The notes under the pieces were generated by a model. That model was not told where the DNA came from. It worked only from the letters and a program-made list of their open reading frames with translations, and did not search any database. Of a stretch of DNA of 47,797 bases, positions 36,034-47,797 are shown piece by piece. The position numbers and the translations under genes are program-made. Source of the DNA: a virus; the UHGV virus genome UHGV-0368429. One strand, 5' to 3'. Every line of letters begins with the position of its first letter. Position 1 is the first letter of the stretch.

Positions 36034-36886
36034 ATTAACGGGTTACGTTTGGGACGCTTGTGCCGCTTCTGGCATGAAGCTGTCCAGCGTTGCCATCATG
36101 GCGCGTCTGGCAGACTTCAGCAGTGATGAAGGGGTTAGCTGGCCTTCCATCGCTACCATCGCGCGCCAGATTGGTGCCGGTGAGAGCACGGTTCGAACAG
36201 CCATATCTCAACTGGAAAAAGACGGGTGGTTAACCCGCCAGCAGCGCCGTAAAGGCAACCGCAATGCATCGAACGTTTACCAGCTCAATGTTGCGAAATT
36301 ACAGGCTGCTGCCTTTTCTCACCTGTCAGATTCTGACGCATCAAAATCTGATGCCTCAAAAACCGACGCGTCAAAATCTGAGGCATCAAAAAACGATGAA
36401 AAAGACGGTTTTCACCCGTCAGAATCTGGGGGGGATCCGTCAGTAAATACAACTACTGATCCATCAGATAAAAAACATTCTTGTCCGGTTGCTGCGCAAC
36501 CCGACCCTGTGGTGGTTATCACCGATCAGGCGAAGCAGGTTTTATCACATCTGAACAAGACCACCGGATCACGGTATCAGGTCTGCAAATCGTCCTTGGA
36601 AAACATCCGGGCTCGCCTGGCTGACGGGTTTACGCCCGATGAGCTGCTGTTGGTGGTGGATTACAGCGTCGAGAAGTGGGGCGAAGATCTGAAAATGGCC
36701 GAATATCTGCGCCCAACAACGTTGTTTTTGCCATCTAAATTCCCAGGTTACCTGCAATCCGCAAATAAGTGGAACGCAGCAGGACGCCCAGAACGACAGT
36801 ACTGGGGCTCAATTCGTAAGCATGATCCGATGAAATTTGGTGGGCCAGATAAAGCCATCCCAGCTGGCTTCAGGGGAGCGAAATGA
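36023..36886 (+). CDS. Replication initiator (lambda O-like replisome organiser)
   Basis: 287 aa; N-terminal winged-helix-like region; central repetitive linker encoded by the iterons; occupies the lambda O position. Confidence 0.65.
   Translation: MSTKLTGYVWDACAASGMKLSSVAIMARLADFSSDEGVSWPSIATIARQIGAGESTVRTAISQLEKDGWLTRQQRRKGNRNASNVYQLNVAKLQAAAFSHLSDSDASKSDASKTDASKSEASKNDEKDGFHPSESGGDPSVNTTTDPSDKKHSCPVAAQPDPVVVITDQAKQVLSHLNKTTGSRYQVCKSSLENIRARLADGFTPDELLLVVDYSVEKWGEDLKMAEYLRPTTLFLPSKFPGYLQSANKWNAAGRPERQYWGSIRKHDPMKFGGPDKAIPAGFRGAK
36335..36400 (+). repeat. Four 15-bp direct repeats (candidate ori iterons) inside the O-like gene
   Basis: TCAAAA[TA]C[TC]GA-type units starting at 36341, 36356, 36371 and 36386 with exact 15-bp period; flanked by palindrome GTCAGATTCTGAC; encode (DASKS)n. 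Confidence 0.5.
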
Positions 36887-37782
36887 TGAGCATGAATGCT
36901 GATAACAAATATTGCCGCGCGCTGGCTGAACTGCGCTCAAAGCCAGCGCATGAATTGAAAGAAGTTGGCGATCAGTGGCGCACTCCGGATTTGTTGTTTT
37001 GGGGCATCAATTCGATATTTGGGCCGATGGTTCTGGATCTGTTTGCAGACGATAGCAATACTAAATGCCCTGCATGGTACACCGCCGAAGATAACGCGCT
37101 GACGCAGGACTGGTCAGAGCGTCTGGCAGAACTCGGTGGCGCCGCGTTTGCAAATCCGCCATATAGCCGTTCTCAGTACCATGAAAAGCAGGCCATCACT
37201 GGCATGACCCACATCATGAATCACACAATGGCGATGCGTGATAAAGGTGGTCGTTACATATACCTCGTGAAGTCAGCCACAAGTGAAACATGGTGGCCGG
37301 AAGATGCCGATCACATCATGTTTATTCGTGGTCGTATTGGGTTCGATCTTCCTATTTGGTTTGTTCCCGCTGACGAGAAGCAGCAACCCACCAGCGCATT
37401 TTTTGCCGGGGCAATCGCTGTCTTCGACAAAACCTGGCGTGGTGAAAGCTTCAGCTATATCAATCGCACCGAACTGGAAGAAAAAGGGCGTGCAGCATTG
37501 TCATTGGCTCAATTCGCCGCGGCAAAAATGGCCCTTTCGTCGGTGCCGGAAAAAGCAATGCCTACTCCCATTGCAACGGCTGATGCAGAGTCGCGCATCT
37601 GGCCGCTGGAGGTTGGTCTGGTATTCAATCAGGTCAAGGGGGCGGATTCTCTGGGCGTGAACCAACAGAACAAGTTGAAGGCCAACATCAACCAACTCTG
37701 GCTGGAGCGTGTGCCTACCAGCGAAATAATTAGCGTGGCCGGTGGTCTGGTTAGCAGCATGCAGGGGGCCGTCAATGCGTGA
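36883..37782 (+). CDS. DNA N6-adenine methyltransferase (phage Dam-like)
   Basis: 299 aa with NPPY motif (…AAFANPPYSRSQ…); start overlaps the O-like stop (ATGA). Confidence 0.75.
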   Translation: MMSMNADNKYCRALAELRSKPAHELKEVGDQWRTPDLLFWGINSIFGPMVLDLFADDSNTKCPAWYTAEDNALTQDWSERLAELGGAAFANPPYSRSQYHEKQAITGMTHIMNHTMAMRDKGGRYIYLVKSATSETWWPEDADHIMFIRGRIGFDLPIWFVPADEKQQPTSAFFAGAIAVFDKTWRGESFSYINRTELEEKGRAALSLAQFAAAKMALSSVPEKAMPTPIATADAESRIWPLEVGLVFNQVKGADSLGVNQQNKLKANINQLWLERVPTSEIISVAGGLVSSMQGAVNA

Positions 37783-39712
37783 AATCATCGTTGATAACTT
37801 TGCCGGTGGTGGCGGCGCGAGTACCGGCATTGAACTGGCCATCGGGCGTAGCGTGGATATCGCTATCAACCACGACGAAAACGCTATTGCGATGCATAAG
37901 ACGAATCACCCGGACACGCTGCATTATTGCGAGTCGGTGTTTGACGTTGACCCAAGCGCAGCCACCAGCGGTAAACCTGTCGGTCTGGCCTGGTTTAGCC
38001 CTGACTGTCGCCACTTTTCCAAAGCGAAGGGCGCTAAGCCGGTTAAGAAAGAGATTCGCGGGCTGGCGTGGATTGTCCTGCGCTGGGCGCTGGCAGTACG
38101 TCCCCGCGTCATGATGCTGGAGAACGTCGAAGAATTTAAGACATGGGGACCGCTGCTGGATGAAGAATTACGCCCGGATCCTGAGCGTGCAGGTGAAACA
38201 TTCGAGGCATTTGTCGGCATGTTGTCGACTGGTATCGCGGCGAATCACCCAGCACTGGCTGAGGTTTGTGAATTTCTTGCCATTGAGCCGCACGGCCAGC
38301 AGGCGCAACAGCTGATCGCCGGGCTTGGCTATGAGGTCGATTATCGTGAGCTGCGCGCTTGTGACTACGGCGCGCCGACGATCAGAAAGCGTTTCTTCAT
38401 GGTCATGCGCTGTGACGGCCGCAAGATTCATTGGCCTGAAGCGACTCATGGGGATCCAAAATCACTGGAAGTACAAAGCGGCAAGCTGGCGCCATGGCGT
38501 ACCGCGGCGGAGTGCATTGACTGGAATATCCCGGCCCGGTCCATCTTCGACCGCAAAAAGCCGCTGGCGGAAAATACGCTCAAACGTATCGCACGCGGCA
38601 TCCAGCGCTTTGTTATCGAAAGCGCATCACCTTTCATCGTGAAGTGTAACCACACCACGACGAAAGGAGGTTATGACTGTTTCCGCGGGCAATCGTTGTT
38701 AGAGCCATTGCAGACCATCACTAAAAAGCATGGCTACGCGCTGGCCGTACCGCATCTTACTAAATTCCGCACCGGGGCCACCGGGCAGCCAGTGACCGAG
38801 CCAGTTCCAACTGTCACCGCTGGTACGTCGGCGCGCCCGGGCGGGAATGGGCATGCGCTTGGCGTAGTTGAGGCCGCCCTGACACCGTTCCTGGCTGGCA
38901 ATGGCGGCAGTGAGTACCAGGCAAAGCCGCGCCCACTGGATAAACCCGCTCATACAATCCTCAAGCAGTCCCGCGCGTGCGTGGTTGCGCCGGTCATCGC
39001 CCGCCAGTTTGGCGCCAGTGTTGGGCATAGGGCTGACGAACCTAGCGCAACGATTACTGCAGGTGGTGGCGGTAAGTCGCAGCTGGTAACTCCAACACTG
39101 ATCCAGATGGGGTACGGCGAACGCCCAGGGCAAGAACCGCGTGTTCTTCAACTGAATAACCCGCTCGGCACGGTCACTGCTGGTGGTAATAAGTTTGCAA
39201 CGGTGAGCGCGTTCCTGGCGAAGCACTATGGTGGGAATTACACGGGGCCGGGTGTTGGTATGGATGAGCCTGCCCACTCAGTCACTACTGTTGATCATCA
39301 CGCGGTAGTTGCGTCGCACCTGGTGAAGCTGCGCGGAACCTGCCGCGACGGTCAGACCATGGATACACCTATGCCGACGATTACCGCTGGTGGCCAGCAT
39401 GTTGGTGAGGTCCGGACATTCCTCGAAACCTACTGCGGTGATAGCGAGGATGAATGGCTGGTGACGATCGAGGGGGTTAAGTACCAGATCGTCGATATCG
39501 GAATGCGCATGCTGCAACCGCATGAGCTTTATAAGGCACAGGGCTTCCCTGACGGCTACGTTATCGATCAGGACTATCGCGGCAATCGTTACGCCAAAGA
39601 CAAGCAGGTAGCGCGCTGCGGTAACGCAGTACCGCCGCCGTTCGCTCGTGCGCTGGTAGAAGCAAATCTTCCTGAATTATGTGCAAATCAAAAGGCGGGT
39701 GCAGCCGCCTGA
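37775..39712 (+). CDS. DNA cytosine-5 methyltransferase with extended repeat-containing variable region (candidate multispecific)
   Basis: From ATG 37775: FAGGGG (motif I), SPDC (motif IV), ENV (motif VI), RKRFFMV (motif VIII), C-terminal GNAVPPPFARAL (motif X); between VIII and X five repeats of the T-[IV]-T-A-G-G type. Confidence 0.8.
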   Translation: MREIIVDNFAGGGGASTGIELAIGRSVDIAINHDENAIAMHKTNHPDTLHYCESVFDVDPSAATSGKPVGLAWFSPDCRHFSKAKGAKPVKKEIRGLAWIVLRWALAVRPRVMMLENVEEFKTWGPLLDEELRPDPERAGETFEAFVGMLSTGIAANHPALAEVCEFLAIEPHGQQAQQLIAGLGYEVDYRELRACDYGAPTIRKRFFMVMRCDGRKIHWPEATHGDPKSLEVQSGKLAPWRTAAECIDWNIPARSIFDRKKPLAENTLKRIARGIQRFVIESASPFIVKCNHTTTKGGYDCFRGQSLLEPLQTITKKHGYALAVPHLTKFRTGATGQPVTEPVPTVTAGTSARPGGNGHALGVVEAALTPFLAGNGGSEYQAKPRPLDKPAHTILKQSRACVVAPVIARQFGASVGHRADEPSATITAGGGGKSQLVTPTLIQMGYGERPGQEPRVLQLNNPLGTVTAGGNKFATVSAFLAKHYGGNYTGPGVGMDEPAHSVTTVDHHAVVASHLVKLRGTCRDGQTMDTPMPTITAGGQHVGEVRTFLETYCGDSEDEWLVTIEGVKYQIVDIGMRMLQPHELYKAQGFPDGYVIDQDYRGNRYAKDKQVARCGNAVPPPFARALVEANLPELCANQKAGAAA

Positions 39713-42731: not shown

Positions 42732-43784
42732 ATGAAAAATACTGTAAATATAAACAGTGTTGAGCTTGTCAACGCTGACTGCCTGCAATACCTCGCAACC
42801 CTCCCAGATAACACCATCGACCTTATTGTTACGGATCCGCCTTATTTTAAGGTGAAGCCGAACGGCTGGGATAATCAGTGGAATGGTGACGCCGACTATC
42901 TTCGCTGGCTTGATATGTGTCTTGCCCAGTTCTGGCGAGTGCTTAAGCCTGCCGGCAGCCTGTATTTGTTTTCAGGTCACCGACTTGCATCCCATATTGA
43001 GATCATGATGCGTGAACGCTTCAACGTCATGAACCACATTATCTGGGCGAAGCCATCAGGGCGCTGGAACGGGTGTAATAAAGAAAGCCTGCGCTCTTAC
43101 TTTCCCGCGACGGAACGCATCCTTTTCGCTGAGCATTATCAGGGGCCATATAAGCCGAAAAGCGACGGATTTGCTGAGAAAAGCAACGAGGTCAAACAGC
43201 ACGTCATGGCTCCGTTAATCACCTACTTTCGGGAAGCACGAGCCGAACTGGGGGTCACGTCCAGGCAAATAGCTGACGCCACCGGAAAGAAAAATATGGC
43301 GTCTCACTGGTTCGGTGCCAGTCAGTGGCAACTACCGAACGAGCAGGATTACGAAAAGCTGCAGGAATTGTTCACTCAGATCGCCATTGAGAAGCACCGC
43401 GCCTCTGAACTCAAAGCACCGCATCACCAGCTGGTGGCCACATGGCATTCGTTGAACCGGAAATACCTTGATCTGCTGGAAGAGTACAAATCTCTTCGGC
43501 GGCATTTCTCTGTGACAGTAGCCGTGCCCTATACAGACGTCTGGACACATAAACCCGTCCAGTTCTATCCAGGCAAACACCCGTGCGAAAAGCCCGCTGA
43601 TATGTTGCGGCAAATCATCAACGCCAGCAGCAGGCCCGGCGATGTGGTAGCTGATTTCTTTATGGGCTCGGGATCAACTGTTAAAGCAGCCATTGAACTG
43701 GGCCGCCAGGCTATCGGCGTAGAACTGGAAGAGGAACGTTTCAACCAGACGGTAAGTGAGGTAAGGCAGCTGGCAGGGGAATAA
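42732..43784 (+). CDS. DNA methyltransferase, DPPY class (N6-adenine or N4-cytosine)
   Basis: 350 aa; motif order ...IDLIVTDPPYF... (catalytic) before ...FFMGSGST... (SAM-binding) is beta-class. Confidence 0.8.
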   Translation: MKNTVNINSVELVNADCLQYLATLPDNTIDLIVTDPPYFKVKPNGWDNQWNGDADYLRWLDMCLAQFWRVLKPAGSLYLFSGHRLASHIEIMMRERFNVMNHIIWAKPSGRWNGCNKESLRSYFPATERILFAEHYQGPYKPKSDGFAEKSNEVKQHVMAPLITYFREARAELGVTSRQIADATGKKNMASHWFGASQWQLPNEQDYEKLQELFTQIAIEKHRASELKAPHHQLVATWHSLNRKYLDLLEEYKSLRRHFSVTVAVPYTDVWTHKPVQFYPGKHPCEKPADMLRQIINASSRPGDVVADFFMGSGSTVKAAIELGRQAIGVELEEERFNQTVSEVRQLAGE

Positions 43785-44070: not shown

Positions 44071-44606
44071 TGTCGAACAAAGCAAAGCTCAGCGCAGCAG
44101 TGCTGGCGCTAATCGCGTCAGGGGCATCTGCGCCACTCATTTTCGACCAGTTCATCAGCGAGAAAGAAGGAAACGCGCTGGTGGCCGTTGTTGATCCTGG
44201 CGGGGTCTGGTCTCTATGTCACGGCGTGACCGTTATCGATGGCAGGCGTGTTGTTAAAGGCATGACGGCCACTGAGGAACAATGCCGGAAGGTTAACGCT
44301 ATTGAACGCGATAAGGCATTAGCCTGGGTTGATCGCAATATCAAAGTGCCTCTGACAGAGCCACAGAAGGTGGGTATCGCATCCTTCTGCCCGTATAACA
44401 TCGGCCCCGGTAAATGCTTCCCATCGACCTTCTATAAGCGTATCAACGCAGGTGACCGCATCGGTGCATGCGAGGCAATCCGCTGGTGGATTAAAGATGG
44501 TGGCCGTGATTGTCGTCTAACCAAAGGCCAGAAGAATGGCTGCTATGGTCAGGTTGAGCGACGGGACCAGGAAAGCGCGCTGGCGTGCTGGGGGTTAGAC
44601 CAATGA
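44067..44606 (+). CDS. R: SAR endolysin (phage 21 R-type lysozyme)
   Basis: 179 aa; N-terminal signal-anchor-release domain followed by lysozyme core (E...D...T: …[25 protein letters not shown]…); overlaps holin stop and Rz start. Confidence 0.85.
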
Positions 44607-45118
44607 AAATTAATCCGGGTCTTTTAGGCGTTGTTGTTATTGCCGTCCTTTCGGTCGCTCTCGTTAAGAGTTGCTCCAACGCCAGTAGTCTTCAGAGCGA
44701 TATCGACGTTCTGCGAAGTGACAACTCTATGCAGGGGCAGGTGATCGCCACCCAGGCATTCAACTTCAATCGATTCAATCAGGTTGCAGAACATGCCAAC
44801 AGGCTTAACTCCCTGATCGACACTAGCACCGAAGAAACCGTAATCGAATACCGGGAGATACTCCGCCGTGAAAAAACCTGTGATCTGCCTGTTCCTGCTG
44901 ACATTGCTGGTGGGCTGCTCGAATACGCGTACCGTTTACGTTCCAGCGCAATGCACGCCGATACCGACGGAACTGACGCAGCCGATGATAGTACCGCTGC
45001 CGCCCGTTCAATAACGTACTGCCAGGCTGTGCTCTGGATTAAGCCGTTGCTGGCCGTAATAGAGAAGGGCAACAATAACTTCGCTGGCATTCGTCAAGTA
45101 GAACAGGAGCGACAATAG
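44603..45118 (+). CDS. Rz: i-spanin Rz
   Basis: From ATG 44603: N-terminal TM helix ([21 protein letters not shown]) then charged helical region; ATGA overlap with the endolysin stop. Confidence 0.8.
   Translation: MKINPGLLGVVVIAVLSVALVKSCSNASSLQSDIDVLRSDNSMQGQVIATQAFNFNRFNQVAEHANRLNSLIDTSTEETVIEYREILRREKTCDLPVPADIAGGLLEYAYRLRSSAMHADTDGTDAADDSTAAARSITYCQAVLWIKPLLAVIEKGNNNFAGIRQVEQERQ
44868..45014 (+). CDS. Rz1: o-spanin Rz1, embedded in Rz in the +1 frame (unlisted, 48 aa)
   Basis: Hand-translated from GTG 44868: (M)KKPVICLFLLTLLVGCSNTRTVYVPAQCTPIPTELTQPMIVPLPPVQ*; lipobox LVGC and Pro-rich C-terminus. Confidence 0.7.
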   Translation: MKKPVICLFLLTLLVGCSNTRTVYVPAQCTPIPTELTQPMIVPLPPVQ

Positions 45119-45274
45119 GTATGGGCAAATCCTAACGTGAAAATCTGCAGCAGCATTTCCATTATGTTTGGCTGTAAATTATCTATCACCATAGGTTTCT
45201 TGCGTCATCAGGTAATAGACCGACCTCATAAAAAGAGGTAAATTATTACTTTACGTTGCGCTCAGGTAGACGAG

Positions 45275-46063
45275 ATGGAAGAACGTCATCACAGCTATAT
45301 CCTTAAAACTATTGAAGAAATAGGAAGGGGTGGGTTCGGTTACGTTGAAAAAATTGAACTTTTCAATGTTAACGGTCACAAATGCGGTGACTACGCCAAA
45401 AAGATTTTGGCGCAGGATCATGGGCTTAGCAAAGAGGACTTCAAAAGAAGATTCAAACGGGAAGTGGATTATCAGGCTAGGTGTACGCACTCGAATATAG
45501 CGCCTATATATCTACACAATCTTCAGGTTGATAGTCCTTGGTTTGTTATGGATCTCGCTGAAAGTGATTTAAGTACAGATTTAGCCTCAGGCACGCTCGA
45601 TAATGCAAGCAAAATGCATATTGCAGAAATGATCCTTTCAGGGGTACGTTTCATGCATACAGAGAAAACTAATGATCCAGGACGTAAGCCAGTATATTTA
45701 CACCGTGATTTAAAGCCATCTAATATTCTTCGTTTTAAAGATGGAGTTTACAAAATTTCCGATTTTGGTTTAGTAAAAAATGCAGGAAAAGAAAGACCAG
45801 AATCTGAGCTTTTAACAAGAGTCGCTACAGCCATGGGAACGCTCAAATACATGGCTCCTGAGATAACAACAGCTGGGCATTACTCAGAGCAAACTGACAT
45901 TTTTGCTCTCGGAGTAGTTATTGATGATATGGGGTTTGATAACGTTAATGGTATTAGACAGTTAATCGATAAATGCACCGCCTGGAGAGCTGCAAGCCGA
46001 TACAAATCGGTTGATGATATGATGCAGGAACTGGCTGATATAAAAATAAGGAATGGGCTATGA
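45275..46063 (+). CDS. Hanks-type Ser/Thr protein kinase (AT-rich moron)
   Basis: 262 aa with GRGGFGYV (P-loop), YAKK (Lys), HRDLKPSN (catalytic loop), SDFG, APE. Confidence 0.85.
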   Translation: MEERHHSYILKTIEEIGRGGFGYVEKIELFNVNGHKCGDYAKKILAQDHGLSKEDFKRRFKREVDYQARCTHSNIAPIYLHNLQVDSPWFVMDLAESDLSTDLASGTLDNASKMHIAEMILSGVRFMHTEKTNDPGRKPVYLHRDLKPSNILRFKDGVYKISDFGLVKNAGKERPESELLTRVATAMGTLKYMAPEITTAGHYSEQTDIFALGVVIDDMGFDNVNGIRQLIDKCTAWRAASRYKSVDDMMQELADIKIRNGL

Positions 46064-46809
46064 TTACCCTACTTTCAAGTGGTCTTTTCTCTTACGCTAA
46101 AAGTTCTTCGCGTACTAATCAGGATTCTATTCTTGCTCCACAGTGCATCGATAATGGCTATTTGATTGCTGTCGCTGATGGCGTTGGCTCGTACTTGGGC
46201 GCAGAACACGCTTCACAAACAGCAATTAAATATTTAGCGAACCTAATCAATGCTTCTTCTATCCAAGATCTTGATAGCCTCTTCGCCACAATAAAAGAAA
46301 AGATTTCTGCGTTATCTGACGCTGATGAATCCTATTTAGAAGCTGCAACGACGTTGACGTTTGCATATGTAAACAATCAAGGTTTGTACATTGGTCATGT
46401 TGGTGATTGTCGTTTGTATATTAAAAAAGATAATAAACTCAAACAACTAACGAAAGATCATACCCAACATCAAAAACTGTTGGATCAGAAGATTTTCAAT
46501 AAAAAAGAACTTAAGGATATGGGGGGGAAAAACACCCTAACAACTGCGATTTCTAAAGTTATCCCATTGGAATTTCAACAAACGTTTATTCCTGCGTCTG
46601 AAGTTTTCGAAGACAACGAAGAGGCCACTCTCTACATTCTTTCAGATGGAGCACACCACTTCTGGGATAAGAGACCAAGATTCTCAATCACTACTTTGAG
46701 CAATCCAAACTGTTTTGCAGCTAGCTTGCATAAACGAATTATTCGTAATGGGCCTATAGATGATTTTTCTTTGGTTGTAGCCAAGTTCAAGCGCAGCAGT
46801 GTTAACTAA
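46060..46809 (+). CDS. PP2C-family Ser/Thr protein phosphatase (AT-rich moron, coupled to the kinase)
   Basis: 249 aa; metal-binding motifs VADGVGS, HVGDCRLY, ILSDGAHH; ATGA overlap with the kinase stop. Confidence 0.75.
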   Translation: MITLLSSGLFSYAKSSSRTNQDSILAPQCIDNGYLIAVADGVGSYLGAEHASQTAIKYLANLINASSIQDLDSLFATIKEKISALSDADESYLEAATTLTFAYVNNQGLYIGHVGDCRLYIKKDNKLKQLTKDHTQHQKLLDQKIFNKKELKDMGGKNTLTTAISKVIPLEFQQTFIPASEVFEDNEEATLYILSDGAHHFWDKRPRFSITTLSNPNCFAASLHKRIIRNGPIDDFSLVVAKFKRSSVN

Positions 46810-46924
46810 TGGTGTGGTTGAACTTGTAAGACTTACGGCTCAATAAAGGTTCGGGCATACGTAGTTCGTGTTGAACATAAGGGCTGAAATTCTGATTACA
46901 TAGTTGAACAAACTCCATACCAGG

Positions 46925-46952
46925 GCCACCAGCAATCACTGGTGGTTTTTTT
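46925..46952 (+). terminator. Rho-independent terminator after the kinase/phosphatase pair
   Basis: CCACCAG-CAATCA-CTGGTGG followed by eight T. Confidence 0.8.
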
Positions 46953-47126
46953 TGCGTATCGCACGCGCACATCAAGGAAAGTCTTTCAGTTGTGAGCCCG
47001 GGCAAACCGTTAACTTTCGGCGGTTTCGCCTTGCGATAGGCGCAATATGGGTTCAACAAAGAGCGCGTTGATGCTGTCCCGCAGAGCAGGGGCCGCGGGT
47101 CCTTTCCGGCTATCTGACATGTTACG

Positions 47127-47138
47127 GGGCGGCGACCT
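47127..47138. other. cosN cohesive-end site (lambda-type 12-nt overhang)
   Basis: GGGCGGCGACCT followed by CGCAGGTTCTCGCTATTTATGAAAATTTTCAGG, near-identical to the lambda left end; Nu1 starts about 180 bp downstream. Confidence 0.9.
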
Positions 47139-47314: not shown

Positions 47315-47797
47315 ATGGAGGTCAATAAAAAACGCCTTTCAGAGATTTTTGGTGTCAGCATCCGCACGATCCAGAACTGGCAGGATCAGGGAATGCCAGT
47401 TGCGCGCGGTGGTGGAAAAGGGAATGAAGTGCTTTATGACTCTGCCGCCGTAATCGAATGGTATTCCGCCCGTGACGCAGCGATAGAAAACGAAAAGCTG
47501 CGCAAAGAGGTTGAACAGCTGAGAGTTGATTCAGAATCAGACCTTGTGCCTGGCACGATTGATTATGAGCGCCATAGGCTTACCCGAGCCCAGGCTGATG
47601 CTCAGGAACTAAAAAATGCAAAAGAGTCCGCTGAGGTGGTGGAGACCGCATTCTGCACGTTCGTGCTGTCGCGGATAGCCGGAGAAATTGCCAGTATCCT
47701 TGATGGAATACCTCTGTCGGTTCAGCGGCGCTTTCCGGAACTGGAAAATCGACATATTGATTTCCTCAAGAAGGACATCATAAAAGCCATGAACAAA
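47315..47797 (+). CDS. nu1: Terminase small subunit Nu1, N-terminal 161 codons (continues at 1..63)
   Basis: ATG at 47315; translation MEVNKKRLSEIFGVSIRTIQNWQDQGMPVARGGGKGNEVLYDSAAVIEWYSARD... closely matches lambda Nu1 as recalled; located about 180 bp downstream of cosN. Confidence 0.9.
   Translation, partial: MEVNKKRLSEIFGVSIRTIQNWQDQGMPVARGGGKGNEVLYDSAAVIEWYSARDAAIENEKLRKEVEQLRVDSESDLVPGTIDYERHRLTRAQADAQELKNAKESAEVVETAFCTFVLSRIAGEIASILDGIPLSVQRRFPELENRHIDFLKKDIIKAMNK

Follow-up and report, generated by a model that had tools for sequence, protein, structure and literature searches.

What might a pair of genes for a protein kinase and a protein phosphatase do for the phage that carries it? 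A temperate lambdoid phage that occurs in Enterobacter and Citrobacter has such a pair between Rz and cos. The window, that is the whole stretch of DNA analysed here, comprises 47,797 nt of UHGV virus genome UHGV-0368429. The features of its last part are as follows.

44585..45118, + strand: Rz-like i-spanin, left border of the cargo slot (phrog_214, E 4.2e-57)
44868-45014: probable Rz1/o-spanin, a lipoprotein ORF of 48 aa with an LLVGC lipobox, embedded in the Rz-like gene
45119..45274, + strand: AT-rich region 5′ of the kinase, 156 bp, with two copies of GTAAATTAT
45275..46063, + strand: minimal Hanks-type Ser/Thr protein kinase, 262 aa (Pfam Pkinase E 2.7e-34; phrog_2361 E 1e-67)
46060..46063, + strand: ATGA overlap of kinase stop and PP2C start, read from the sequence
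46060..46809, + strand: PPM/PP2C-family Ser/Thr phosphatase, 249 aa, catalytic domain alone (PP2C_2 E 7.6e-16; PP2C 2.5e-9)
46922..46953, + strand: terminator-like hairpin with T run, 11-bp stem and 6-nt loop, from folding (hairpin proper 46922-46949)
46946..47044, + strand: lambdoid junction element of about 95 bp, right border of the cargo slot, shortened here (86-90% identity in 86 phage records)
47127..47138, + strand: cos cohesive end, GGGCGGCGACCT, from the sequence and from the start of the phi80 record alignment
47315..47797, + strand: start of the terminase small subunit Nu1, which continues past the window end (PF07471 Phage_Nu1 in the identical prophage L003)

Borders, origin and transcription of the cassette

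The positions of the Rz-like gene and of cos agree with the location between Rz and cos given in a preliminary description of this DNA. The annotation of the phi80 genome record gives its first 12 bases as sticky end; this record begins to align at 47127-47138, and Nu1 of the window showed 82-85% identity to Nu1 of phi80 and HK225. Rfam at gathering thresholds matched no RNA family in the window. Close relatives of the window phage were 94-97% identical to it until the Rz stop at 45118 and carried unrelated cargo beyond. Homology to Phi06_2987 S, LLS and mEp237 ended exactly at this stop and resumed at 46946, and the slot between Rz and cos of these three phages held other ORFs instead of the pair. 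The alternative cargo of the sister phages had no Pfam match, so the slot itself gives no clue to function. On its right side, the junction element was aligned with Phi06_2987 S, mEp390 and HK639; the 95-bp element folded only marginally better than its shuffles (z -1.9).

The GC content was 0.36-0.42 over 45050-46850; the lysis genes had 0.50-0.56, and the sequence past 46850 had 0.46-0.53. For the cassette it was 39% against 51-54% in the flanks, in line with the earlier claim of a lower GC than in the flanking lysis and packaging genes. A slot filled differently in related phages and a deviant base composition, the marks of a moron sensu Juhala/Hendrix, were both found, and the sequence comparison supports the view of the pair as acquired cargo in a variable slot. 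The independently acquired moron of the preliminary description stands in these respects; a promoter and a terminator of its own are only putative, as set out below. A megablast search with 45119-46952 found no near-identical DNA, neither among 50,697 phage records nor among 5,426 complete genomes of E. coli, and we do not regard the cassette as an element of E. coli. Proteins identical to those of the window came from Enterobacter asburiae, E. hormaechei and Citrobacter; in all, 81 assembly blocks of Enterobacter and Citrobacter contained them.

The two copies of GTAAATTAT upstream of the kinase lie at 45171-45182 (GCTGTAAATTAT) and at 45235-45246 (GAGGTAAATTAT), the second of them 40 nt ahead of the kinase ATG. 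Many cassettes in differing contexts have a GGTGTAAATTTT-like motif 40-44 nt 5′ of the kinase ATG, with a score of at least 10 in 12 of 50 cassettes (0.45 expected from shuffles). The conserved motif contains a -10-like TAnnnT, with a TCAATAG / TTGAYA box 21-23 nt upstream at a spacing that is not standard. We regard it as a putative cis-element and only infer a promoter role. A consensus scan of 45119-45274 at a 9/12 threshold found no sigma-70-like site; at this threshold a standard sigma-70 promoter ahead of the kinase was set aside, and an independent promoter is not established. No terminator was found between Rz and the kinase in the window, and both genes point the same way as the late operon. 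Judged from the sequence, the late lysis operon of the window phage certainly includes the pair in its transcript; expression in a lysogen would depend on the upstream element at 45235-45246 as a putative promoter. Because of the late-operon location without a consensus promoter or an upstream terminator, the pair may be made mainly in lytic growth.

Downstream, the hairpin of 11 pairs (-18.7 kcal/mol, z -2.4) starts 113 nt beyond the PP2C stop. Its stem resembles that of mEp390, and its T run is common to many lambdoid phages. Since the T run and the following sequence are a lambdoid backbone element, the hairpin is not assignable to the cassette alone. The strong terminator described earlier thus exists as a terminator-like hairpin with a T run, but in part it belongs to the backbone. 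With this hairpin, the result of the promoter scan and the open junction to the late operon, an independent transcription unit is a candidate reading only.

Two enzymes reduced to their catalytic domains

The kinase is a kinase domain alone, of the RD type. The Pfam scan matched Pkinase and PK_Tyr_Ser-Thr and nothing else, with Pkinase above its gathering score; relatives of 243-293 aa have the same two Pfam families. The P-loop (G17-G19-F21-G22), the catalytic Lys K43 (second K of YAKK) and E63 were found in the N-terminal part, followed by H143-R144-D145, N150, D163-F164-G165 and A194-P195-E196. These motifs were invariant or nearly so across 33-118 relatives, and T181 of the activation loop was conserved. 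By its HRDLKPSN loop and its GT..Y.APE segment, both typical of Ser/Thr kinases, the window kinase is predicted to belong to that type. AlphaFold predicted a bilobal protein-kinase fold (pLDDT 89, pTM 0.87) with a short C-lobe, in which only two helices follow alpha-F, and Foldseek placed the model at TM 0.70-0.79 to structures of TGF-beta receptor, IRAK4, CTR1 and PknB. The motifs and the fold of Hanks-type kinases (PF00069) were both recovered. The kinase lacks a sensor domain, and its sequence therefore suggests no trigger.

The phosphatase has the metal ligands D22, D40-G41, D116, D196-G197 and D234-D235, which were invariant in 34 relatives. Its AlphaFold model (pLDDT 92.7) matched M. tuberculosis PstP at TM 0.79-0.82. 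Both marks of the PPM/PP2C family were recovered, the PPM fold and the aspartates that bind metal in motifs I, II, VIII and XI. The NCBIfam Stp1/IreP-type model matched at E 5.9e-29, under its equivalog cut-off. By their sequences and models, both enzymes have complete active sites, and their canonical folds are confident; the complete catalytic motifs claimed for the two proteins in the preliminary description were all found. Structure searches with either protein gave generic kinase or PPM neighbours only and no clue to substrate or trigger. The ATGA overlap noted earlier is present, and a Shine-Dalgarno AAGGA lies ahead of the PP2C start at 46048-46052. The overlap indicates that kinase and PP2C are translationally coupled.

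A family of kinase-PP2C cassettes

Sequence comparison places the pair in a large gammaproteobacterial family in which a bare kinase is followed by a bare PP2C. The PP2C search gave 585 clusters at 90% identity. The PP2C directly followed the kinase on the same strand in 78 of 80 IMG/VR viral loci, the other two being contig ends, and a 4-nt overlap was present in 50 of 61 distinct loci (49 ATGA, 1 GTGA). Pairwise distances of kinases and of PP2Cs were strongly correlated (Mantel r 0.85), a value that 0 of 2000 permutations reached. The comparison indicates that kinase and PP2C form one conserved, co-evolving unit, inherited and exchanged together. In 54 of 55 loci the cassette had a lower GC than its flanks.

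Members of the family were found after Rz, after Q, directly after cI, in P4-like satellites and in islands near restriction or toxin-antitoxin genes. The pair lies after Q or after lysis genes, co-oriented in the late operon, in 25 of the 61 distinct loci. In 8 distinct loci it lies directly downstream of a CI-type repressor (HTH + S24 peptidase, or CI HTH), again co-oriented, with a divergent cro-type gene upstream and, in one locus, Kil downstream. This slot, at which the pair would be expressed in a lysogen, is the position of rexAB in lambda, and also that of stk in 933W. Klebsiella P4-like or PICI-like satellites with one cassette variant accounted for 885 assembly blocks. The cassette was located beside a type I restriction system in an island of Pseudomonas, next to an AAA_15/21 ATPase and ParE/Phd in Xanthomonas, and in integrase islands in E. 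coli and Aeromonas. Such a distribution of related sequences indicates that the cassette hops among cargo slots of temperate phages, satellites and genomic islands. The occurrence of one cassette in three classical lambdoid cargo slots (after cI, Q and Rz) is relevant to the question of how prophages trade and express their cargo.

The kinase was broken or missing in 5-6 of about 36 PP2C-seeded genome loci and the PP2C in 0 of 61 kinase-seeded distinct loci (Fisher p = 0.005, for few events in two differently seeded samples). Gene decay was one-sided: the kinase was lost with the PP2C intact, and the reverse was never seen.

Known kinase systems and the proposed role of the pair

KKP (PfpC-PfkB-PfkA), the kinase-kinase-phosphatase module of Pf6 and other prophages, is a kinase/phosphatase toxin-antitoxin system with a defence activity against T4 and T-odd phages (Guo et al. 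2024, PMC11341870). Like the window pair, it is carried by prophages and satellites, combines Hanks-type Ser/Thr kinase with PP2C and is widespread in Gram-negative mobile elements (PMC11341870). The proposed logic would also be alike, with the kinase as toxin, the phosphatase as antidote and infection as the trigger of defence. The three KKP genes follow one another as PP2C, kinase, kinase, whereas the window has two, kinase then PP2C. Both KKP kinases are needed together and have C-terminal CSD and FHA domains (PfkA-like cold-shock, PfkB-like FHA); the Pfam scan found neither a cold-shock nor an FHA domain in the 262 aa of the window kinase. The KKP genes measure 900-1300 bp, with additional C-terminal sequence in PfpC, while the window kinase (789 bp) and PP2C (750 bp) are both bare. 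No second kinase was found in the window region or in the 61 distinct related loci, and no KKP-type neighbour in any locus examined. Gene number, gene order and domain content rule out that the pair is KKP itself. KKP, which the preliminary description did not name, is nevertheless a closer precedent than the 933W Stk that it did name.

933W Stk of a Shiga-toxin phage excludes HK97 (PMC3681748). It resembles the window kinase as a kinase of eukaryotic-like fold from a lambdoid prophage, and shares its slot with the 8 post-cI relatives of the pair; its exclusion function (PMC3681748) would be a further likeness under the role proposed below. It differs in its length (348 aa), in having HFD for HRD and in being a reported tyrosine kinase; it has no adjoining phosphatase and lies in the cI (pM) operon, not between Rz and cos. 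In a two-sequence BLASTP the two kinases showed 22% identity over 230 residues with 28% gaps (E 7e-8), and 933W was absent from the tblastn matches at E <= 1e-5. At 22% identity the window kinase was ruled out as a homologue of 933W Stk, which is left as a remote analogue.

Stk2 of Staphylococcus and PD-T4-6 of E. coli share with the window kinase a Hanks-type core and, with the role proposed below, an abortive-infection-type defence. Each is a single gene with no phosphatase partner and encodes a longer protein with extra regions. The PADLOC models matched the window kinase at 3e-34 (PD-T4-6) and 3.6e-24 (Stk2). The PD-T4-6, Stk2 and MADS mad6 matches as a group (E 1e-37 to 4e-24) were confined to the kinase core of profiles that are longer, such as positions 53-246 of 659, or 13-205 of 327 (193 positions). 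The bit score for PD-T4-6 was 116 against 119 for Pfam Pkinase, mad6 was also at about the Pkinase level, and NCBIfam MAD6 gave 50.6 bits against a cut-off of 460. Since these matches represent a generic kinase core only, we do not class the pair as PD-T4-6, Stk2 or mad6. Operons of the housekeeping Stk1/PknB and Stp1/PstP pairs likewise have an adjoining Hanks kinase and PP2C, and PstP and Stp1 were the closest structures to the window PP2C (TM about 0.8). Their kinases, however, are membrane receptors of about 560-650 aa with PASTA or other sensor domains, the phosphatase gene usually comes first, and the operons belong to the chromosomal core of Gram-positive bacteria and actinobacteria. 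Scores against the NCBIfam models of these types were far under the equivalog cut-offs (98 vs 450 bits; 101 vs 230 bits). Lambda rexA-rexB is an analogue in position and concept: two exclusion genes that travel as prophage cargo and share a transcript with cI, an arrangement that the 8 post-cI relatives also have. Its proteins and chemistry are unrelated, and the window pair lies in the Rz-cos slot.

By analogy with KKP, we favour, with a probability of about 0.5, the reading that the pair is a mobile, self-contained phosphorylation-based toxin/antidote anti-phage module (exclusion or abortive infection) serving the cell that carries the prophage. The comparative evidence, namely cI operons, satellites, defence-type islands and one-sided decay, fits a toxin/antidote or exclusion role. 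Context alone gives no direction between defence and anti-defence, because mobile elements also carry anti-defence genes. In the proposed mechanism, kinase and phosphatase would be made together, and the PP2C would strip phosphate from cellular targets and from the activation loop of the kinase (candidate site T181), which would let the cell grow normally. An infecting phage would tip the balance of the two enzymes. It might inhibit the phosphatase, as T4 Gp59 does with PfpC of KKP, activate the kinase directly, as HK97 does with 933W Stk, or alter the relative levels of kinase and PP2C. The freed kinase might then phosphorylate host and/or phage proteins broadly, which would arrest growth and block production of the invader.

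A literature search found the KKP papers and no paper on a two-gene kinase-PP2C phage module, and the DefensePredictor paper contains no PP2C system. We tentatively suggest, at less than even odds, that the bare-kinase/bare-PP2C pairs are a distinct minimal family of two-gene phosphorylation-based defence, separate from KKP, Stk2, PD-T4-6 and 933W Stk and spread in gammaproteobacterial prophages, satellites and islands. The phosphatase would be the guarded component, whose inhibition or titration by a phage would unleash the sensor-less kinase, and the portable upstream cis-element would provide expression wherever the cassette lands. Few systems of bacterial kinase-based immunity are known (Stk2, 933W Stk, PD-T4-6, KKP), and the cassette would be the simplest of them, one catalytic domain against another without sensor or adaptor domains. 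For this reason it could be a clean model for how infection tips a phosphorylation balance. The 2023 PADLOC model set did not recognise the cassette as a system, and defence inventories of clinical Enterobacterales would therefore miss it.

The late-operon layout of the window and of the 25 loci mentioned above also agrees with a function in the lytic cycle. The pair would then be expressed late under Q and reprogram the dying host or neutralise its defences by phosphorylation, with the phosphatase limiting or timing the kinase. A preprint reports that T7 kinase disarms defences (bioRxiv 10.1101/2024.12.20.629319). Against this, expression after the onset of lysis-gene transcription would be poorly timed for takeover or anti-defence. 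The same cassette also occurs after cI, in satellites and in non-phage islands, all without a late operon, and the conserved non-coding motif upstream travels with it. We consider a lytic role unlikely.

The loci beside cI in the immunity region point in another direction, to a switch that would set the phosphorylation state of a regulator encoded by the phage, or of a nucleoid or regulatory protein of the host, and so tune prophage induction or host physiology. A reversible enzyme pair would suit signalling, and KKP has a second role of this kind, via MvaU, in which Pf lysogeny is controlled by phosphorylating an H-NS-family protein. The window kinase, however, has neither of the domains (CSD and FHA) on which KKP depends. 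Moreover, the carriers are very diverse (lambdoid phages, P4-like satellites and islands without phage), which makes a carrier-specific regulatory target unlikely, and a switch of this type seems improbable.

Compared with the favoured toxin/antidote defence, pure addiction, in which the pair would stabilise its mobile element by post-segregational killing without an anti-phage role, is very doubtful: the overlapping two-gene operon, the one-sided decay and the constant location on mobile elements would suit it, but a folded enzyme of 249 aa is no obvious candidate for a labile antidote, addiction brings little benefit to prophages integrated in the chromosome, and the characterised kinase modules of such kind (KKP, Stk2, 933W Stk) defend against phages.

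The gene pair and its enzymes

The preliminary description had read a kinase gene and a PP2C phosphatase gene at 45119-46952 as an AT-rich moron and possible exclusion module. This reading was largely sound overall: the best-supported explanation of the pair is a phosphorylation-based toxin/antidote module defending the carrier cell against other phages, to which we give a probability of about 0.5. The two genes, their overlap, their low GC (0.36–0.42 over the two genes vs 0.50–0.56 in the lysis genes) and their flanks were confirmed, and therefore the observation was correct in place.

Features of the cassette and its surroundings in the window
Upstream, spanin ending at 45118: holin, endolysin and Rz-like spanin
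45275-46063, + strand: kinase gene, 262 amino acids (ORF listing and direct reading; Pfam Pkinase, E 2.7e-34)
46048-46052: AAGGA ribosome-binding site, within the 3′ end of the kinase gene
46060-46063: ATGA overlap, 4 bases common to both genes (direct reading)
46060-46809, same strand: PP2C gene, 249 amino acids (PP2C_2, E 7.6e-16; PP2C, E 2.5e-9)
46922-46953: hairpin and T run downstream of the pair
47127-47138: cohesive-end sequence GGGCGGCGACCT
47315 to window end: Nu1

The window covers a complete lambdoid genome in circularly permuted form: it opens in the large terminase subunit (38-1960) and closes inside Nu1 (from 47315), and so its two ends join. Exact copies of both proteins were found in Enterobacter asburiae, E. 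hormaechei and several Citrobacter species (81 assembly blocks).

Alignments covered 117 relatives of the kinase and 119 of the phosphatase and were repeated on curated subsets. They confirmed that both enzymes carry complete catalytic motifs. All residues that define Hanks-type kinases are present and are invariant or nearly so among the relatives (G17/G19/G22, K43, E63, H143-R144-D145, K147, N150, D163-F164-G165, A194-P195-E196, R242). The HRDLKPSN catalytic loop is typical of Ser/Thr kinases, as is the GT..Y.APE segment. The enzyme belongs to the RD class, and its activation loop has a threonine, T181, that hardly varies among the relatives. The PP2C protein keeps all metal ligands (D22, D40-G41, D116, D196-G197, D234-D235). 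AlphaFold models were confident (pLDDT 89 for the kinase, 92.7 for PP2C); the kinase superposed on solved kinases with TM 0.70–0.79, and PP2C on bacterial PPM phosphatases such as PstP and Stp1 with TM about 0.8. Only two parts of the kinase model were poorly ordered, the activation loop and, ahead of HRD, a 9-residue insert. This insert, TEKTNDPGRKPV, lies between helix E and the HRD loop (45659-45694, kinase residues 129-140; pLDDT about 65); it is found in the window kinase and its closest relatives and is absent from the family consensus. Neither protein contained a domain besides the catalytic one. The kinase has no sensor, so control must lie with the phosphatase, with relative dosage, or with a foreign protein acting directly on either enzyme.

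Conservation of the pair

About 150 cluster-level relatives of the kinase were detected, nearly all of 243–293 amino acids, and the PP2C search gave 585 clusters, the best 120 of which were nearly all of 244–259 amino acids. Their hosts are Enterobacterales, Pasteurellales, Pseudomonas, Xanthomonas, Vibrio, Aeromonas, Acinetobacter and Shewanella. In an IMG/VR profile scan PP2C directly followed the kinase on the same strand in 78 of 80 loci; the other two were contigs ending just past the kinase. A 4-nt overlap joined the genes in 50 of 61 distinct loci (49 ATGA, one GTGA). Pairwise divergences of kinase and phosphatase were strongly correlated (Mantel r 0.85; none of 2000 permutations as high), and the cassette was AT-richer than its flanks in 54 of 55 loci (mean GC 38% vs 48%).

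Outside the window's 90% cluster, an Aeromonas integrase island holds the nearest relative that is concordant in both genes, 70% identical in the kinase, 64% in PP2C and about 66% at the DNA level over 1.6 kb. Three viral loci (L013, L014, L019) match the window at 71% in the kinase and at just 54–56% in PP2C, and the opposite holds for an E. coli island (kinase 51%, PP2C 60%). Such mosaicism suggests occasional recombination between the two genes. Distant PP2C genes (24–31% identity) from Deltaproteobacteria, Binataceae and other MAGs have a kinase ORF of about 338 amino acids downstream. This opposite order, PP2C and then kinase, was seen in loci L150, L151, L155-L157, L162, L163, L168-L171, L174, L180, L182, L187 and L189, which possibly form a separate family of kinase-phosphatase modules.

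Cargo slots, carriers and transcription

The sister phages Phi06_2987 S (97%), LLS (95%) and mEp237 (94%) align with the window as far as the final base of Rz; beyond it they differ, with unrelated small ORFs lacking assigned function in the Rz-to-cos slot. Homology resumes at 46946 with a non-coding element of about 95 bp, 86–90% identical in 86 phage records (window 46946-47044; L190:591-689, minus strand; L110:2501-2621; L111:2501-2599). In other phages a GC-rich hairpin, different from case to case, and the same T run stand before this element. After it come the Shine-Dalgarno sequence and start codon (AAAAGGAAAT-N4-ATG) of unrelated cargo genes, among them a 155-amino-acid ORF, a glycosyltransferase and HK639_13. 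The window has a shortened copy, with cos next. No Rfam family matched the element, and its RNA fold z was only -1.9; cargo genes may use it as a portable leader or promoter, or as a recombination junction. Both borders are conserved and the content differs, thus the cassette is an exchangeable insert. With its low GC and the other cargo of the sister phages, this upholds the moron claim in its compositional and comparative sense.

The cassette may also be an independent transcription unit. A consensus scan found no promoter in 45119-45274. Nor did it find a terminator between Rz and the kinase gene, and therefore late transcripts must read into the pair. A motif near GGTGTAAATTTT, with a -10-like TAnnnT, nevertheless lies 40–44 nt before the kinase start in many cassettes in different contexts, scoring at least 10 in 12 of 50 cassettes vs 0.45 expected. 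The window has GAGGTAAATTAT at exactly this distance (45235-45246) and a second copy at 45171-45182. The GTAAATT-containing motif occurs in L001, L002, L007, L015, L023, L027, L029, L053, L058, L060 and others, with TCAATAG or TTGAYAT 21–23 nt further upstream in a subset. A non-coding element travelling with the genes is what an own promoter would look like, but this upstream box is off standard -35 spacing and does not fit a standard sigma-70 promoter.

The most informative result of the analysis is the distribution of positions. Neighbours in the 61 distinct loci were classed by clustering and by PHROG/Pfam searches on representatives.

Genomic positions of the cassette in 61 distinct loci
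13/61: after lysis genes, before small terminase (e.g. the window, Escherichia phage Flotzy)
12/61: after antiterminator Q, before holin (e.g. Cronobacter phage phiES15)
8/61: directly downstream of a CI-type repressor, co-oriented
28/61: unclassified

The eight post-cI loci have a divergent cro-type gene on the repressor's other side, and one has kil further downstream. This is the position of rexAB in lambda and also of 933W stk, and genes there are made in the lysogen. Klebsiella P4-like or PICI-like satellites (integrase, AlpA, D5_N/DUF927 primase) carry the pair as well, one variant in 885 assembly blocks. It further occurs in an E. coli integrase/resolvase island, beside a type I restriction-modification system and integrases in Pseudomonas viridiflava, beside an AAA_15/AAA_21 ATPase, a ParE/Phd pair and a DEAD-helicase/MZB gene in Xanthomonas, and in a small island in Vibrio parahaemolyticus. 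The cassette is therefore independent of any one carrier or lytic programme, and a late lytic function, with which read-through from the lysis genes would agree, seems unlikely.

The Q-to-holin slot of the window holds an N6/N4 methyltransferase gene (42732-43784) common to phages Flotzy, LLS and Eeyore. It is one of three DNA methyltransferase genes, of Dam-like, C5 cytosine and N6/N4 types (the other two at 36883-37782 and 37742-39712), which are likely anti-restriction cargo.

Known systems and decay of the kinase

The closest functional precedent is KKP, the PfpC-PfkB-PfkA prophage module, in which two kinases are jointly toxic and the PP2C phosphatase is the antidote; T4 Gp59 inhibits this phosphatase, and KKP both guards against T4 and T-odd phages and adjusts the induction of the Pf prophage (PMC11341870). 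The window's pair has the same two chemistries in the same kind of element but none of KKP's own structural criteria (PP2C-kinase-kinase triplet, CSD and FHA fusions, 900–1300 bp genes); it would work in the manner of KKP but is simpler and a separate family. A regulatory switch, recalling the induction effect of KKP, is a doubtful reading of the pair. The preliminary comparison with 933W Stk stood in that Stk excludes HK97 (PMC3681748), but Stk is only 22% identical to the window kinase, is non-RD (HFD), lacks a partner phosphatase and is reported to be a tyrosine kinase. PADLOC models for PD-T4-6, Stk2 and mad6 matched the kinase core only, with scores like those of the generic Pfam model, and NCBIfam equivalog scores were far below cut-offs. 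Full-text searches, of incomplete coverage, gave no publication describing a two-gene kinase-PP2C module in phages. After KKP the pair would not astonish a specialist, but the cassette is common, has apparently escaped characterisation and is passed over by the 2023 PADLOC models, and it is simple enough for a good experimental model.

Decay of the cassettes bears on toxin/antidote defence. In a PP2C-seeded sample of one genome per species (about 36 family members), PP2C was intact and the kinase split, truncated or absent in 5–6. Among the 61 kinase-seeded distinct loci, PP2C was never lost and the kinase was damaged in three. If a kinase without its opponent does harm, it should be the first gene to go, and the phosphatase never. 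The asymmetry (Fisher p = 0.005) comes from small numbers and two differently seeded samples, and is therefore no more than supportive of the poison/antidote idea. Pure addiction, a poison/antidote pair without defence, is less probable still than a lytic or regulatory role. No viral or genome locus examined had an intact kinase with a damaged PP2C. The decayed cassettes were viral loci L050, L062 and L087 and genome loci L117, L129, L130, L141, L142 and L143; the kinase was broken or missing and PP2C intact, except in L142, where both were degraded.
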